Assembly: GCA_025454975.1 (NCBI GenBank)
Contig: JALONK010000008.1
Location: 7,569-71,568, forward strand
From: Bacteroidia bacterium
GTDB lineage: Bacteria; Bacteroidota; Bacteroidia; UKL13-3
Length of the DNA stretch: 64,000 nucleotides
Reading direction: 5' to 3'
Shown here: one piece after another, positions 31,943-46,582 of the stretch
How positions within the stretch are numbered: position 1 is the stretch's first letter
Layout of the letters: every line of letters starts with the position of its first letter
The notes under the pieces: generated by a model
What the model saw: the letters and a program-made list of their open reading frames with translations, nothing else
Databases searched by the model: none
What the model was told of the DNA's origin: nothing
Program-made: the position numbers and the translations under genes

Positions 31943-32632
31943 TTACTTATTCCAAGGTGGGTTAGTACAATATTCTTCCATGCAAAATGCACAACAAAGT
32001 AAGTAGGCCGGGAACACTTCAATGGTAGCTGCACATAATGCCACACAAGCATAAAATTTAGGACCACAGTTTGGCCCGTTGCTTCCACTTCCGCTACTCC
32101 CTGTTCCTTGTCCTTGCTTTAGTTTGGCATAAAATGCATCAAGTTGTTTCGGATTAGCTTTAAAATACTCAAGTTTTTGGGTAATTTGCTTAAGCTTCTC
32201 ATCATCGGATAACAGACAACTTTTACACATAACATTTAGAGATTCTAATTGATAACGTCTATTTAAGGATTCAGAAGCAGTTACAAGCGACATGGCAATT
32301 GAATCAAATTCGACCGGCGAAATATTTAAGGTTTCACAGAATTCAAATTTGTTCATTCCCGCTAATTTTCTCATCTCTCCTCTGTAGGACAGCATTCGAT
32401 TAGCATACTTCTGAGTCCCTTCAATCATGGCCAACCACTCCGGATCACTTGCAATTGATTTTACATCCTGTACACTCATATCCGAAACCTTCGTTGATTG
32501 AGCAGAAGTTGTAGACTGATTTTCTGCTATTTTTTCCTTCTCCTTATCACAAGCATTCATCGTTAACAATAAGAAGCAATAAAATAACATGGCAAAGAAT
32601 ATATTGCCTTTTGGTTTAATTGGTAAATACAT
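31943..32632 (-). CDS. Putative lipoprotein with Gly/Ser linker and Cys-rich hydrophobic C-terminus
   Basis: 229 aa; signal peptide and LLLTMNAC lipobox-like motif; tail ...GTGSSGSGSNGPNCGPKFYACVALCAATIEVFPAYLLCCAFCMEEYCTNPPWNK. Confidence 0.5.
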   Translation of the reverse strand: MYLPIKPKGNIFFAMLFYCFLLLTMNACDKEKEKIAENQSTTSAQSTKVSDMSVQDVKSIASDPEWLAMIEGTQKYANRMLSYRGEMRKLAGMNKFEFCETLNISPVEFDSIAMSLVTASESLNRRYQLESLNVMCKSCLLSDDEKLKQITQKLEYFKANPKQLDAFYAKLKQGQGTGSSGSGSNGPNCGPKFYACVALCAATIEVFPAYLLCCAFCMEEYCTNPPWNK

Positions 32633-40065: not shown

Positions 40066-40995
40066 ATGCTTTTTAAGCAACTTATTCAAGATTTAAAGTC
40101 GCTACTGTACGAAATTGCCATTATTCGTTGGTTCCTATTGTTATTGGTTGCTTCCACCACAACCTACATTTGTTATGTTAAAGGTGGTCGAGTATACATC
40201 AATAACTTGGAAGGTTGGTGGTCGTTCCTGGCTTATGTAATTGTGTATGCATTTCATTATTACGGTGCTATATTTATCCTTCTTCCTTTTAAAAAGGTTA
40301 AAGAATTGTTAAAAGACGTTCGTTTTGTATTATATAGTGTTATAGGAATACTGGTTTTTGCTACACGTTCATCATCATCTATTCATGTAAACTTAATTTC
40401 AAATTGGTTTGATGAAGCTGAAGCAGATGTAATAAATTATAAGTTTAAATACCTTATACGTTCATGTTATTTACTTATTCCTTTAACCATATTGTGGTTT
40501 ATTAACGACAGAAAGCAACAGCCTTTATATGGATTTACAGGAATAAATAAAAGTTTAAAACCATATTTGATTTTGCTTATGTGTATGGTTCCATTGGTTG
40601 CAGTTGCATCTACCCAAAGTGATTTTATAGCATATTACCCAAGGATTAAACTAATTATGCAACCTGATGTTAATATGGCGGAAGCTATTTGGTTTGAATT
40701 TGCTTACGGGTTGGATTTTATAAGTATCGAGTTTTTTTTCAGGGGTTTTTTGTTGTTGGCATTAATAAATGGTGAAGCATCCAAACAACTTATTTTACCA
40801 ATGGCCTTATTTTATTTAAGTATTCATTTTGGCAAACCCATGGGAGAGGCCATCAGTTCATTTTTTGGTGGCACTATTTTAGGACTTATTACTTACCGTA
40901 GCAGGAGTATTTATGGTGGGATAATGATTCATATGGGAATAGCATGGTTAATGGAAGCCGGCGGAGTTATAGGTAACATGATATTAAATAAATAA
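40066..40995 (+). CDS. CPBP family intramembrane metalloprotease (CAAX protease-like)
   Basis: 309 aa polytopic protein; motif 1 SIEFFFRGF (EExxxR-like), then FxxxH and H...N-like motifs. Confidence 0.55.
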   Translation: MLFKQLIQDLKSLLYEIAIIRWFLLLLVASTTTYICYVKGGRVYINNLEGWWSFLAYVIVYAFHYYGAIFILLPFKKVKELLKDVRFVLYSVIGILVFATRSSSSIHVNLISNWFDEAEADVINYKFKYLIRSCYLLIPLTILWFINDRKQQPLYGFTGINKSLKPYLILLMCMVPLVAVASTQSDFIAYYPRIKLIMQPDVNMAEAIWFEFAYGLDFISIEFFFRGFLLLALINGEASKQLILPMALFYLSIHFGKPMGEAISSFFGGTILGLITYRSRSIYGGIMIHMGIAWLMEAGGVIGNMILNK

Positions 40996-41027
40996 GGCGC
41001 GCAGCGAAGCTGCGCGCCTTATTTGCA
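40994..41027. terminator. Bidirectional terminator between convergent CPBP and hppA genes
   Basis: AAGGCGCGCAGC-gaa-GCTGCGCGCCTT: perfect 12-bp GC-rich stem flanked by A-run and T-run. Confidence 0.85.
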
Positions 41028-41049: not shown

Positions 41050-43596
41050 CTACATTTGTTTAGTCACTTTATCATCACAATGATTACCTTCACCAACAGT
41101 GCAACAAGATTTATTTTCTTTGTGTGAAGCAACACATTTATCATCACAAGTTTTTTCGCATGCTTCGGCTGACGCACATCCTTTATCACAGTTCTCAGCG
41201 CTTAAACCTTTATGTGCTTTTATCATATTCAAACAATTCGCTTTTTCTTCGGCCGAACAACCCATGCTGTCGCAATACTTAGCACATTCTTCCTCAGTCA
41301 TACCCATCATTTTACTCATATCACATTTGCCATCTTTGCCGCACGACATTCCTTCCATTCCTGCACAATGCTCCATTTTTTCTTTACCACCGGCAGTTTT
41401 GTTTTCTCCATTAGTGTGATGTCCTAACATCGGAGCTAAGGTTAATCCAACTAAACATGATAGTTTAATTAAAATATTCATTGATGGTCCGGAAGTATCT
41501 TTAAATGGATCTCCAACAGTATCGCCAACTACTGCAGCTTTATGTGGTTCTGATTTTTTATAAAAAATCTCCTTTTTACCATTCACTTCAATTTCAACAC
41601 CTTTTTCAAATGATTTTTTAGCGTTATCCCAAGCTCCACCTGCATTGTTTTGGAAGATTGCCCATAACACACCACTTACTGTAACACCGGCCATATAAGC
41701 ACCTAATGCTTCTGCACCCATGCCTAGGCCAACTATAATTGGTGTTACAATAGTTATAACACCGGGTAATAACATTTCTCTTAAAGCCGCAGCAGTCGAA
41801 ATCTCAACACATTTACCATATTCAGGTTTGCCTGTTCCTTCCATAATTCCGGGGATTTCGCGGAACTGACGGCGAACTTCATTTACCATGTCCATGGCCG
41901 CTTTACCCACTGAATTCATCGCTAAAGCCGAAAATACAACCGGAATCATACCTCCGATAAATAATGCAGCTAAAACTTTTGCATCAAAAATATTAATACC
42001 ATTAATTCCTGTAAAAGTTACATAAGCTGCAAATAACGCAAGCGCAGTTAAAGCTGCTGATGCAATTGCAAAACCTTTACCAATGGCTGCAGTTGTATTA
42101 CCAACTGAATCTAATATGTCTGTTTTTTCACGTACATCAGCAGGCAATTCACTCATTTCGGCTATACCTCCTGCATTATCAGCAATTGGTCCAAACGCGT
42201 CAATTGCTAATTGCATGGCCGTATTAGCCATCATAGCCGAAGCGGCAATACCAACACCGTAAAACCCTGCTAACGCATAAGCTCCCCAAATTGCTCCTGC
42301 AAATAATACAACCGGTAGTGCAGTTGATAACATACCTGTACCAAGCCCGGCAATAATATTTGTAGCAGCACCTGTAGCTGATTTTTGAACAATACCTAAT
42401 ACAGGTTTTTTACCTAAGCCGGTATAATATTCTGTAATGTATGAAATAGCACCTCCTACAAACATACCAATGATAACCGCATAAAATACATTCATTGAAG
42501 TTGTTGTGGCTACACTAAATACACCAGCGTTAAACACACTCATGGTCATTGTTTCAGGTAACATAGCCTGAATTAAAAAATAGGCAGCAATTAATGATAG
42601 TAAGATTGAAGCCCAATTGCCTCGATTTAAAGCTGCTTGTACAGTATTTGTATCTGCTTTAGCATTGTCACTAACGCTTACAAAATATGAACTTACAATA
42701 GAAGCTAATAATCCAACTCCGGCAATACTTAGTGGAAGTAATATCGGGCCTAAACCATTATACGGTAAACCTTCATAGCTATTGTTAGCAATAAACCAAT
42801 CACGTATTAAATAATTTCCTAATACCATTGAAGCCAATACAGTGGCTACATACGAACCAAATAAATCGGCACCCATACCAGCAACGTCACCCACATTATC
42901 ACCTACGTTATCTGCAATTGTTGCCGGATTACGAGGGTCGTCTTCAGGAATACCTGCTTCAACCTTACCAACTAAATCAGCACCAACATCTGCAGCTTTG
43001 GTATAAATTCCACCACCAACACGTGCAAATAAGGCTATACTTTCAGCACCCACCGAGAATCCGGCTAATACCTCAAGAACCCTTGTCATAATTTCATGTC
43101 CACCATTGGCTAAACTTCCTTGCATAAAAAATTGGAAGAATAATATGAATAGCATGCTTAAGCCAAGTACCGCCAGGCCTGCAACACCTAAGCCCATTAC
43201 TGTGCCTCCGGTGAATGAAACTTTTAATGCTTTGCTTAAAGAAGTACGCGCAGCCTGGGTTGTCCTTACATTTGCCTTTGTTGCGATACGCATTCCGAAA
43301 AATCCGGCTAATGCACTAAATACACAACCAATCACAAATGAAGCAACAATTAAAATGTGTGATGTTTCAACAACTTGTGAAAGCCATCCTAAAGCCGCTC
43401 CTGCCAACACCACGTAAATAGCCAGAATCTTGTATTCAGCCTTTAAAAAGGCCATAGCTCCTTCCGCTACGTAGCCTGCAATTTCTTTCATGCGGTCATT
43501 TCCCGCGTCTTGTTTGCTTACCCAGCCGCTTTTTACGGCCATTACAATCAGCCCCAATACACCAAAAGCCGGAATTAAGTAAATAAAATTCTCCAT
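41050..43596 (-). CDS. hppA: K(+)-insensitive H(+)-translocating pyrophosphatase with a 121-aa Cys-rich C-terminal extension
   Basis: [20 protein letters not shown] and DNVGDNVGD signatures, 15-16 TM. After the last TM (...LAPMLGHH) the same frame continues 121 aa with 16 Cys (CX3C, CX4C, CX3CX3C) and Met-rich patches. Confidence 0.9.
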
Positions 43597-43682
43597 GTAG
43601 TATAAATATTTTTATAGTTAACTTGGCAAAAATAGAATTTAATTCCTATTTTGAAACTTGTTTACCATTAGATACTCACGAA

Positions 43683-44510
43683 ATGTATAACTATTTTATC
43701 TTTTGGACAGGTATATTATGCCTGTTCAACCCTGTGCATGCACAGCAAATTTATGGAACTTCCGGGGCTGAATCTGCAATGTTAGGAGGTGTAAGTGTTG
43801 TATTATCAAATGCTTATGCCGTCGTCAATAATCCTGCTCAACTAACCAGCCTGAAGAATTGGCAAGCCGGTTTATACAATGAAAATCGCTTCAATCAAAA
43901 AGAATTACAATACTCAAATTTTTCTATAAATGTTCCAATAAAATACTTTTCCGCCGGTTTTGGAATCAATTATTATGGTTTCGACCAATTTAACCAGCAA
44001 CGTTATATGCTGGCATTGGCTTCTAAAATCTCACAACAATTTTCTGCGGGTATTCAACTTAATTATGCTGTAACACAAATGGGTGAATATGGCGCTGCCG
44101 GAACTTGGCTTATTGGATTAGGCCTTAAACTTCAAATAACAACCAAACTCCAATCTTCCTTTTTTGTATTCAATCCCAACCAAGCTAATCAAAAAAGGTT
44201 AAATAGTATAAATATCCCAACTTACGCTCGATTGGGCTTTAAACATCAGGTTAATAAAAAAGTAAATGCTAATGTAGAGTTTGAGCAAGCCATAGAACAA
44301 CCTTTCATTTTAAGGTTTGGAATAGGCTACGACCTCAGTCAATCCTTCGGTTTAGGAACCGGATTTGCCGTTAATCCCGTGATTTATTCTTTTGGTTTCT
44401 ACTATAAATCTTTACGAACACAAGTTCATCTGGCTTCACAGATTCATCAAATACTGGGTTTTACCCCAATGGCTTCTTTGCTAGTTCCGGTTAACAAAGA
44501 GTTAAAGTAA
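43683..44510 (+). CDS. Outer-membrane beta-barrel protein (hypothetical)
   Basis: Signal peptide MYNYFIFWTGILCLFNPVHAQ; alternating aromatic/Gly strands; C-terminal ...F-like residues. Start at ATG 43683 preferred over TTG 43623. Confidence 0.5.
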   Translation: MYNYFIFWTGILCLFNPVHAQQIYGTSGAESAMLGGVSVVLSNAYAVVNNPAQLTSLKNWQAGLYNENRFNQKELQYSNFSINVPIKYFSAGFGINYYGFDQFNQQRYMLALASKISQQFSAGIQLNYAVTQMGEYGAAGTWLIGLGLKLQITTKLQSSFFVFNPNQANQKRLNSINIPTYARLGFKHQVNKKVNANVEFEQAIEQPFILRFGIGYDLSQSFGLGTGFAVNPVIYSFGFYYKSLRTQVHLASQIHQILGFTPMASLLVPVNKELK

Positions 44511-46582
44511 TGATGAATAAATTATTTGCATTATTGCTTGCTTTTAGCTTGACAATAAATACCTATGCTCAATTGTTACGCGAATCGGTTGAATCAATTA
44601 TAGAAACCTTGATGGAACGGCGTATCGAACAAAGTGAATCTAATTTAGATTATAACGATTTACAAGCTCACCTCCTTCATTATGCTGAAAATAAACTTGA
44701 CCTTAATAAGGTTACTCACAGTGAACTTCAACAATTATTTTTTTTAAGTGAACTTCAAATTCAAGCCATCATCAGTCATCGTAATTTATATGGCAATTTC
44801 CTCTCTGTTTATGAATTACAAACTATAAATGCATTGGATGAAAACACCATTTATTTCCTGTCTTATTTTGTTGCTGTTGATGAAGATTGGCAGGCGAATC
44901 AAACTAACTTGTTAGCTATGTTTAAGGAATCAAATCATGAATTTATATGGTTAGCCGATACTGAATTGCAACAACGCAAAGGTTATAAAGCTGTTGATTC
45001 TCTTACGGCTTCTAATCATTATTTGGGCAGACAAATTCGTCAAGTGTTCCGATACCGAATGTCATTCGGACAACATCTAAGTATTGGATATTCGGGTGAG
45101 AAAGATGCAGGGGAGGCTTTTGCCTTTCAATCAAAAATTAAAGGATTTGATTTTCATTCAGCTCATGTATTTTATCAACCTCCAAAAGGATTAATAAAGG
45201 TAATTGCACTAGGCGATTATCAAATAAATATTGGGCAAGGCCTCACTTTTAGTTCCGGAATAGGTGCTCGCAAAGGCGCGTTAGTACTTGATGTTAGAAG
45301 AAGTAACCAGGTGATTAGGCCTTACCGCTCACTAAATGAAAATGAATTCTTAAGAGGTACTGCTGTCACCTTTCGATATAAGAATTTTAATGGTACCGCA
45401 TTTGGTAGTCGAAAGCCTATTACAACAAACCTAACTTTAACAGATAATGCCGATAATGATACATATTTTACTTCTATTACAGCCTCAGGATTACATCGTA
45501 CCCCTGCCGAGTTAAAAAGGAAAAACAATGTTTTACAAACCATAGCCGGCCTGCAAATGGCTTTTCAATTTAATAAAATAGAAATTGGATTGTTGCGCGT
45601 TCATGCCTTTTATAATCAAAGTATAAAACAAGGCGACGCACCATATCAAAAATATCAATTTTCAGGAAACCAACTTCAACATTCTGGTTTGTACTACAAT
45701 TATCAATGGCGTAATTTCAATTCCTTTGGCGAATTCTCCTTAAATGATAATGGCGCTTATGCATTTACTGCTGGTTGTGTTATTGCATTAGATGTATCTT
45801 TAGATTTAATATGCTTATATCGAAACTTTGCTAAAAATTATCAAACCACATTTGCTAATCCATTTGCTGAGTTTGCTGATGTGAAAAATGAACAAGGGTA
45901 TTACTCCGGTTTTATGTTTAAATTAAATCGAAAGTGGAATTGGAATGGCTATATTGATATTTATCAAAGCAAATGGCTAAGATACCTTGTTGATGGACCG
46001 TCTTATGGTATGGATGTTTTACAAGAATTACATTTTCAACCTTCTAAAAAAACACAGATGTATTTTAGATTTAAAAGAGAAATTCGTCAACGCAATCAAC
46101 CGGATAATTTAACAGTTAGTGATTATTTAAATGAACAAATCAGGTCGAATTATCGATTACATCTTCAACAAAAAGTATCCATTCTCCTTACTTTAAAATC
46201 AAGAATTGAACTGGTAACTTTTGCACTCGAAGGTAACAAGCAACAAACAGGTGTATTAATTTTTCAAGATGCAAGCTGGCGCAATCAAACAAATAAGTTT
46301 AGTATAACCTCTCGATTGGCTTTATTTAACGTTGATGATTACAATGCGAGGGTTTATGCAGCGGAGAATGATGTGTTGCATCAGTTTTCTGTTCCAATGT
46401 ATCAGTATAGCGGCGTACGTATGTATGTTGTTGTCAGGTTAAAGCTTAGGCGAAATCTTGATGTATGGCTTAAACTTAGCGAAACCAAATATTCTAACGT
46501 AAATACAATAAGTTCAGGGCTTGAGTTGATTAATGGAAACAGAATTACTGATGTGCGACTGCAAATGAGGTATAATTTTTAG
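44510..46582 (+). CDS. Helix-hairpin-helix (ComEA-like) domain protein fused to a large beta-barrel-like domain
   Basis: 690 aa; signal peptide; N-terminal LNKVTHSELQQLFFLSELQIQAIISHRNLYGNFLSVYELQTINALDENTIYFL resembles tandem HhH; C-terminal ~500 aa beta-rich; ends in F; 1-nt overlap with the preceding OMP gene. Confidence 0.5.
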   Translation: MMNKLFALLLAFSLTINTYAQLLRESVESIIETLMERRIEQSESNLDYNDLQAHLLHYAENKLDLNKVTHSELQQLFFLSELQIQAIISHRNLYGNFLSVYELQTINALDENTIYFLSYFVAVDEDWQANQTNLLAMFKESNHEFIWLADTELQQRKGYKAVDSLTASNHYLGRQIRQVFRYRMSFGQHLSIGYSGEKDAGEAFAFQSKIKGFDFHSAHVFYQPPKGLIKVIALGDYQINIGQGLTFSSGIGARKGALVLDVRRSNQVIRPYRSLNENEFLRGTAVTFRYKNFNGTAFGSRKPITTNLTLTDNADNDTYFTSITASGLHRTPAELKRKNNVLQTIAGLQMAFQFNKIEIGLLRVHAFYNQSIKQGDAPYQKYQFSGNQLQHSGLYYNYQWRNFNSFGEFSLNDNGAYAFTAGCVIALDVSLDLICLYRNFAKNYQTTFANPFAEFADVKNEQGYYSGFMFKLNRKWNWNGYIDIYQSKWLRYLVDGPSYGMDVLQELHFQPSKKTQMYFRFKREIRQRNQPDNLTVSDYLNEQIRSNYRLHLQQKVSILLTLKSRIELVTFALEGNKQQTGVLIFQDASWRNQTNKFSITSRLALFNVDDYNARVYAAENDVLHQFSVPMYQYSGVRMYVVVRLKLRRNLDVWLKLSETKYSNVNTISSGLELINGNRITDVRLQMRYNF

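Follow-up and report, generated by a model that had tools for sequence, protein, structure and literature searches.

A Cys-rich C-terminal domain, predicted to be periplasmic, on a membrane pyrophosphatase of Bacteroidota

Membrane pyrophosphatases (M-PPases), described as single-domain subunits (PMC6882861), have so far been treated as single-domain, unregulated primary pumps. Our search of the literature for Cys-rich or extended M-PPases found one case alone, the OmpA-like C-terminal domain of Paucibacter/Burkholderiales enzymes, the role of which is called unknown in a 2024 PeerJ review (PMC11210485); Cys-rich tails are not mentioned in that review. Here we describe an M-PPase gene (hppA) in a stretch of 64,000 nt of the Bacteroidia bacterium contig JALONK010000008.1 (positions 7,569 to 71,568; this whole stretch is called here the window), the reading frame of which runs on past the last transmembrane (TM) helix into a Cys-rich tail of 121 residues. 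The likeness to the OmpA-bearing enzymes lies in the added, predicted periplasmic domain past the last TM helix; the differences are that the domain in the window is Cys-rich, helical and of no known family, that the phylum is another one, and that the OmpA-bearing enzymes are K+-insensitive whereas the enzyme of the window is probably of the K+-dependent Flavobacterium johnsoniae (Fj) type.

A gate Glu at position 5.43 combined with Ala at position 12.49 is the unusual arrangement of the F. johnsoniae H+-PPase (PMC10897367, PMC6882861). The protein of the window shares with this type the full 16-TM body, the gate Glu (E185) and the Ala; however, solved M-PPases end a few residues past TM16, while here 121 residues follow, which we place in the periplasm. 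The parts of the gene are as follows:

41050..43596, minus strand: gene for the PPase and its Cys-rich tail, a single open reading frame (ORF) of 848 aa (PF03030; NF001955; exact public match)
41416..43596, minus strand: pump body, residues 1-727, a 16-TM M-PPase (alignment to VrPPase 4a01/6aft)
41326..41415, minus strand: tail residues 1-30, a linker that contains a Met/Cys patch and, near the membrane, the K-M-E-(H)-C motif (predicted local distance difference test score, pLDDT, <50)
41206..41325, minus strand: tail residues 31-70, the three-helix 'T1' core (conservation in 160 sequences; AlphaFold2, AF2, pLDDT 78-90)
41053..41205, minus strand: tail residues 71-121, a second helical Cys module and the distal CC...GEGNHC end (family alignments; pLDDT ~74-76)
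41050..41052, minus strand: TAG stop codon, the end of the 848-aa frame
40990..41024, minus strand: intrinsic terminator hairpin common to the convergent gene, with a 16-bp stem, 9 GC pairs and a T-run

The ORF listing and the in-frame run to TAG bear out the claim, made earlier from the letters of the sequence, that hppA is one continuous frame of 848 aa. An identical protein is public (MCU0421955.1, named 'MAG: sodium-translocating pyrophosphatase [Bacteroidia bacterium]', where MAG stands for metagenome-assembled genome). In a Pfam scan the family PF03030 (H_PPase) spans residues 13-718 (E 1.6e-257); the score for the NCBIfam equivalog NF001955 is 1186.5 bits (cutoff 1059), which makes the protein a member of the membrane pyrophosphatases, and the VrPPase and TmPPase structures can be aligned along the entire pump body. 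Past ...LAPMLGHH (residue 727) the frame holds exactly 121 further residues (728-848; nt 41053-41415). As solved M-PPases stop ~8 residues past the aligned end, the tail is a genuine extra domain past the last TM helix, just as had been proposed. The stem of the terminator (41024..40990) begins ~25 nt beyond the PPase stop, thus the true 3' end of the gene is at the TAG codon.

A fusion of this kind may be suspected to be an artefact: the frame could have shifted, a stop could have been missed, or assembly could have joined the PPase gene to an unrelated ORF downstream. A scan for homologues, with one genome per species, gave 80 loci, and the entire orthologous ORF was readable in 78 of them. 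An in-frame tail recognised by the hidden Markov model (HMM) of the family was present in 14 of the 78 orthologous ORFs (E 4e-9 to 3e-34), all from independent MAG assemblies. The original prediction had envisaged both a tail shared by PPase orthologues of relatives, which is what we observed, and an unrelated downstream ORF joined by assembly, which is contradicted by these junctions; because 14 independent genomes show the same in-frame TM16-tail junction followed by a homologous tail, a local frameshift or an assembly fusion is excluded. Database searches agree with this picture. An exhaustive HMMER search of 1.84 billion representatives gave 38 matches, nearly all of which begin with the last PPase helix and therefore are C-terminal fragments of PPases; a profile search gave 267 proteins at E <= 1e-3, and the matches sampled from it were PPase C-terminal fragments in 28 cases out of 28. 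At E <= 1e-5, 751 proteins matched with the Flavobacterium-type version of the tail, including one from an isolate, Flavobacterium sp. HMWF030. Matches named by their source were called pyrophosphatase or hypothetical protein in every case.

Two observations could still be quoted in favour of an artefact. A word-index search with the single tail as query had a sole match, P0001 (L001 1-560), the only apparently stand-alone tail ORF (99 aa), situated on a contig of 1.8 kb. The GC content of L001 shifts between ~38% and ~56% precisely at the start of this ORF, and the closest relative of P0001, P0043, is PPase-fused; because of these two facts we read L001 itself as the chimera, probably a chimeric or truncated metagenome contig. 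The other observation is an in-frame TGA within the tail of one orthologue (L006 5374-5376, MAG RE-15aug16-236), exactly where the C-x3-C-x3-C module has its first Cys codon; beyond the TGA the frame is intact and conserved up to the His-rich end. Selenocysteine is unlikely at this position, being a single case where no SECIS-like hairpin was found (z = 0.1), and a sequencing error or a recent nonsense mutation is more likely. With the shared junctions, the PPase fragments among the database matches and the terminator beyond the stop codon on the other side, the probability that the fusion is an artefact is negligible.

The tail follows TM16 directly, without a further hydrophobic segment. The catalytic GDTVGDP motif, which is cytoplasmic, precedes TM16, and TM16 passes the ion gate on its way from the catalytic side to the exit channel (PMC6882861). 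In orthologues the same position is taken by a domain of YceI type (PF04264, E 9e-26 and 5e-29) or by a peptidoglycan-binding OmpA domain (PF00691, E 1.4e-22). YceI and OmpA are both periplasmic domains. The direction of TM16 and the presence of OmpA and YceI in sister enzymes thus speak for the non-cytoplasmic face, where the tail had been placed before, and we take the tail to be periplasmic.

The tail of the window (121 aa) contains 15 Cys, 10 Met and 4 His. All the Cys motifs quoted for it originally, as well as MSKMMGM, are present; however, the number of Cys given then, 16, included Cys714, which is inside TM16. Cys makes up 12.4% of the tail, compared with 0.4% of the pump body and 1.0% across all the long ORFs in the window (binomial p = 2e-12). 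The enrichment of Met is ~threefold (8.3% versus 2.6%, p = 1e-3), at conserved core positions and in MxxM/MxM patches.

The core of the T1 family was delineated in 160 sequences, with the consensus M-M-G-K-C-D-M-S-K-C-A-T-M-T-K-E-E-C-A-K-M-C-D-S-L-G-C-T-P-E-Q-K-E-M-C and the pattern C-DMSK-C..MTKEE-C-x3-C-DSxG-C-x7-C. In the window it reads C31-DMSK-M36-..M39-TEEE-C44-AKY-C48-DSMG-C53-SAEEKAN-C61. Conservation is 98-100% for C44, C48, C53 and C61, and 97% for C31; the non-Cys residues D, M, K, T, E, A, D, E and K are conserved at 82-96%. Position 36 is Cys in 90% of the sequences; the exceptions have M (8 sequences), V (5), I (1) or F (1), and the window, with Met36 at this sixth core Cys position, is among them. 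The AF2 model of the tail, made with an alignment of 121 sequences, has a mean pLDDT of 63; the core (78-90) is predicted as three helices (tail residues 33-36, 41-51 and 55-69), and the second module (~74-76) as two short ones. Modelled alone, the core gave the same three helices with pLDDT 76.

Past the core, many T1 members have a mirrored module, C-x3-C-x3-C-x5-C-x3-C-x3-C. In the window the module is C76-x3-C80-x5-C86-x3-C90-x3-C94, with the first Cys of the family missing. The distal ends of T1 tails are either His-rich, with runs such as HEHEHNHKHEHDGHDHNGHQH terminating many of them, or of the CC..GEGNHC type (the window and its closest relative, L004); in some proteins the T1 modules are duplicated. 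In tails of Flavobacterium type (P0066, P0126, P0189), an architecture to which the 751 proteins mentioned above belong, the T1 core leads into a conserved SHYDANGKF motif, then a CC motif and lastly a ~45-residue domain (...NGKAKATVTT...QVFEGSLEEVKAKVEALK) with no match found in Pfam. Rarely T1 stands on another membrane anchor: on a 2-TM protein with CGPG repeats, encoded on a contig of 50.9 kb (P0023, L082 6001-6576), and on a DoxX-family (PF07681) protein that has Cys-rich segments at both ends (P0194, L083 1143-2054), a fusion of uncertain topology encoded on a contig of 4.4 kb with 2.9x coverage. Otherwise T1 was found almost only on this pump, in Bacteroidota.

The spacing of Cys was counted in 133 tails and compared with shuffled sequences. 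The spacings C-x-C and C-x2-C were never seen (0 against ~130 and ~128 expected), whereas C-x3-C (243 against ~127), C-x4-C (263 against ~126), C-x7-C (376 against ~123) and C-x8-C (202 against ~123) were all enriched, with z = 8 to 25. As these spacings follow the helical period, the Cys residues line faces of helices. Vicinal CC was present in 126 of the 133 tails, yet not above the shuffles (z = 1.8). The number of Cys was even in 63 tails and odd in 70; among the 15 complete T1 ORFs from genomes it was even in 12. Comparison with eight relatives gave a dN (non-synonymous divergence) of 0.35-0.68 for the tail and 0.04-0.11 for the pump core, where dS (synonymous divergence) was 1.25-2.8; with synonymous sites saturated, dN/dS can only be bounded, with omega < ~0.3 for the tail. 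By these estimates the tail evolves ~tenfold faster than the pump, still under selection.

Pfam and NCBIfam scans of the window tail returned nothing significant; the same was true for Pfam scans of 31 homologous tails, where the best match was Vanabin-2 (E = 0.52). A PDB sequence search with the tail profile had zero matches at E <= 10, and a comparison with solved structures found no matching fold. The architecture, which was not recognised as described in the original prediction, is indeed absent from Pfam, NCBIfam, PDB and the searchable literature. Searches by sequence, profile and fold placed residues 728-848 in no known family, and the kinships suggested originally, with Csp/DUF326 and with metallothioneins, are not supported. 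T1 is, as far as sequence and predicted structure tell, a new helical Cys domain family without relatives in Pfam, NCBIfam, PDB sequences or solved folds.

The kinship with Csp deserves a comment, as the tail does resemble Csp1/Csp3 (DUF326) in having numerous Cys along alpha-helices at i, i+4, and Csp1-type members are periplasmic (PMC12510493). A diverged copy of the Cys-lined four-helix-bundle copper store could even be assembled if the homodimeric pump paired two tails into a bundle. However, PF03860 and the NCBIfam copper-binding models were matched by none of the 31 tails at E <= 10; the tail profile had no PDB chain at the same threshold (in a library where the presence of Csp structures was unchecked); and the AF2 model is a three-helix core with short helices rather than a four-helix bundle. 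The C-x2-C and C-x-C spacings typical of DUF326 and metallothioneins are those that the tails lack, and a bacterial metallothionein, the other kinship suggested, also had no HMM match and does not fit a core confidently modelled as helical. In addition, the tail is tethered to the membrane and would cross it unfolded, whereas periplasmic Csps are soluble proteins exported by the twin-arginine translocation (Tat) system (PMC12510493). Descent of the tail from Csp or from a metallothionein is, therefore, very improbable. The complete absence of CxC and CxxC also makes motifs of the thioredoxin-like, zinc-ribbon, HMA, haem c and Fe-S kinds unlikely. As cofactors, Fe-S and haem c were rejected, with CxxC and CxxCH missing; for Fe-S we assumed, moreover, that a cluster could not be loaded onto a tail crossing the membrane unfolded.

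Two other groups of proteins are comparable in part. Cox17 and other CHCH proteins (twin CX9C) and small Tim proteins (twin CX3C) are small helical hairpins in which two helices bear mirrored Cys, and their compartment is oxidising and extracytoplasmic; in Cox17 a vicinal CC binds Cu(I) while the structural disulfides are kept. Mirrored C-x3-C-x3-C pairs are found in T1 family members, with the first Cys absent from the window; however, homology is undetectable, the parity of Cys is not biased to even, the spacings of the tail (x3, x4, x7) and its loop lengths differ, and the tail is bacterial and fused to a pump. The tails of P1B-type metal ATPases, such as the di-Cys tail of plant HMA4 (PMC6255694), are likewise Cys/His-rich, fast-evolving terminal extensions of an ion pump, with CC and His stretches. 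These are cytosolic, largely unstructured and attached to pumps carrying the metal that they bind, whereas the tail of the window is, by our prediction, periplasmic, partly folded and attached to an H+ pump.

The function of the domain is probably metal- or thiol-based. Our preferred reading, which we hold tentatively, is that the tail binds or senses a soft metal (Cu(I)/Zn) and is held together in part by disulfides. The domain consists of four parts: the flexible K-M-E-C linker, the three-helix core of ~35 residues with five or six Cys, the second helical Cys module and the variable Cys/His end, with Cys all at helical (i, i+4, i+8) spacings. It would bind a soft metal, most likely Cu(I), possibly Zn(II); inter-helix disulfides would hold one part of the tail, with free thiolate, thioether and imidazole ligands elsewhere, a behaviour like that of Cox17-type proteins in the oxidising intermembrane space of mitochondria. 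Tethered to TM16 beside the exit channel, and with two tails brought together by the homodimeric pump, the module may serve as a periplasmic metal buffer on an abundant membrane anchor or may relay metal or redox status to the pump. We infer metal binding, the identity of the metal and the coupling to pumping from several features. The odd Cys counts of 70 tails indicate that the tails are not all fully disulfide-paired; the enrichment of Met, the conserved Met positions and patches and the frequent His-rich ends offer further soft ligands; CC is present in most tails; sister tails that are not homologous have the same composition at the same site; and Met takes the place of core Cys36 in 8 of the 15 exceptions, the window included.

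The main rival is a purely disulfide-stapled, metal-free helical knob with a structural or regulatory role. Its antiparallel helices would be tied to each other by Cys, in the manner of small Tim proteins (twin CX3C), CHCH proteins, vanabins and Euplotes pheromones, giving a rigid domain that stabilises the dimer, docks on the periplasmic loops or the exit channel, or binds a partner in the envelope. Six conserved Cys in three helices and ~35 residues, too few for a hydrophobic core, have the classic look of a disulfide-stapled mini-protein; the mirrored triplets of the second module suit links between helices; an oxidising periplasm would be reached by unfolded translocation; the complete ORFs from genomes favour even Cys counts; and the strongly conserved non-Cys residues of the core fit a defined fold or interface. 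On the other hand, odd counts are slightly commoner than even ones in the larger set, 10% of the sequences, including the window, have lost Cys36 with no other core Cys lost, and this reading does not account for the enrichment of Met, for the His-rich ends or for the composition on which non-homologous tails converge; we regard the metal-free knob as possible, though rather unlikely. It is a doubtful proposal that, in surface-water Bacteroidota, the tail senses redox state or oxidants at the periplasmic mouth of the pump, or forms an antioxidant shield of sacrificial Cys and Met there. Here, reversible oxidation of Cys and Met would shift the conformation of the tail and tune or protect pumping. 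It would profit from the high content of Cys and Met with variable Cys parity, from the origin of the carriers, mostly lake and reservoir MAGs, from the position of the tail next to the exit channel, the geometry of which affects coupling (PMC6882861), and from the DoxX-family carrier of T1. This family is linked to quinone and thiol redox chemistry. However, the CxxC redox motif is wholly absent, genes for Msr, Dsb or thioredoxin are not conserved nearby, the contig of the DoxX-family carrier is short and of low coverage, and composition is the sole basis of the proposal.

Several points weigh against the soft-metal module itself. No metal-binding family was matched by either sequence or fold, the classical CxxC and CxC metal motifs are absent from the 133 tails, and no metal-homeostasis or redox genes are conserved beside the PPase. 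As the tail of a polytopic protein, it would have to cross unfolded into an oxidising compartment, whereas the known periplasmic Cys-lined Cu stores are Tat-exported (PMC12510493). The stapled look of the small core counts here too; Cys36 is also replaced by V, I and F, so that it may be a simple buried position; the vicinal CC is no more frequent than chance arrangement gives; and there is no obvious need of a PPi-driven proton pump for a metal sensor.

One could speculate further about the metal module. A ligand at the exit-channel region locks TmPPase (PMC6882861), a precedent for control from the periplasmic side. Since two identical subunits form the pump, and since the exit channel at which a ligand can lock the enzyme is lined by TM16, a dimeric Cys-lined assembly and allosteric control of the pump are conceivable. 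In the boldest version, which we consider improbable, the C-terminus of the Fj-type H+-PPase is a periplasmic platform and T1 a metal or redox regulator on it, a Cys/Met-lined bundle of two tails that gates pumping via TM16 and the exit channel; it would be the first M-PPase controlled periplasmically by an intrinsic sensor, with a new metal-binding fold convergent with Csp. If the tail binds metal or senses redox, the metal or oxidant status of the envelope would be tied to PPi-based energy conservation in abundant freshwater bacteria, and a new small metal- or disulfide-based fold would be added. Were it a structural knob only, the gain would be a modest one in annotation: a new domain family and a corrected likely ion specificity.

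That correction follows from the pump body. E185 of the window aligns with S235 of VrPPase, i.e. position 5.43 as counted from E225 (5.33) and T228 (5.36). Position 6.53 is Gly and position 6.57, the site of the E6.57Q mutant of 6aft, is Ala, so that neither has Glu; position 12.49, related to K+ dependence, is Ala within the GNTTAA motif. The ion-gate signature (E5.43, G6.53, A6.57), together with Ala at 12.49, is common to all 78 relatives. The semi-conserved gate Glu at 5.43 and Ala, not Lys, at 12.49 are the marks of the subclass, and by this signature the pump is probably an F. johnsoniae-type K+-dependent H+-PPase. The label H+-PPase in the original prediction fits the gate residues, as judged from sequence, and disagrees with the NCBI name, which says sodium-translocating; because the gate residues match the F. 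johnsoniae type, the 'H+' label is probably right and the NCBI/JGI 'sodium' name probably wrong.

Orthologues of the pump differ greatly in what follows TM16. Across the 78 orthologues the pump body is 74-95% identical to that of the window, yet the classes of tails are unrelated:

T1 Cys-rich tail: 14 of 78 orthologues
Other Cys/His-rich tail: 19 of 78
YceI: 7 of 78 (L018-L020, L042, L011, L039, L051)
OmpA: 3 of 78 (L074-L076)
Other extensions without Cys: 29 of 78
Extension of <= 17 residues: 6 of 78

The pump bodies of YceI or OmpA carriers share 77-91% identity with that of the window, and at ~90% core identity enzymes with YceI are intermingled with enzymes that have T1. YceI, OmpA or unrelated Cys/His-rich tails stand on sister pumps of 85-95% core identity. 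The other Cys-rich tails resemble T1 in their Cys/His/Met-rich composition at the same position. Homology of T1 to them was undetectable (hhalign probability 0.1% and 4.6%), and on these values remote kinship was rejected. The membrane-proximal K-M-E-C-[C/H/T] motif, scored as M-[ED]-x(0,1)-C with the consensus K-M-E-C, occurs in 30 of 34 Cys-rich tails, the types of which are unrelated in other respects. By these comparisons, the C-terminus of this PPase clade is a hotspot for accretion of periplasmic domains. What is new is a widespread family of accessory domains on a known pump: T1 is present in environmental sequences by the hundred and in no fewer than one isolate of Flavobacterium, and Fj-type H+-PPases of Bacteroidota, as a whole subclass, routinely bear periplasmic C-terminal domains.

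In the neighbourhood of the gene, a divergent pair upstream of the PPase (window 43623-46582, plus strand) encodes a 295-aa protein of no assigned function and one of 690 aa in which a ComEA-like helix-hairpin-helix motif occurs. In 7 of the 9 T1 loci compared, synteny extends to both genes or at least to the ComEA-like one; nothing points to a functional connection with the tail. Comparison of T1 loci showed no metal-homeostasis or redox genes conserved beside the PPase, and the adjacent CPBP/Rce1-like protease is not conserved in L004; conserved neighbour genes do not help to choose among mechanisms.

Elsewhere in the window, a 229-aa ORF (31943-32632, minus strand) for which no Pfam match was found has an N-terminus like that of a lipoprotein and, at the other end, a hydrophobic stretch dense in Cys (CGPKFYACVALCAATIEVFPAYLLCCAFCMEEYC), with 12 Cys in total. 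Finally, MAGs labelled Verrucomicrobiota/Chthoniobacterales, Bifidobacteriaceae and Comamonadaceae (L061-L064, L007, L031) carry a PPase of Bacteroidota type with 81-91% core identity; such off-phylum PPases indicate horizontal transfer or mis-binned contigs.

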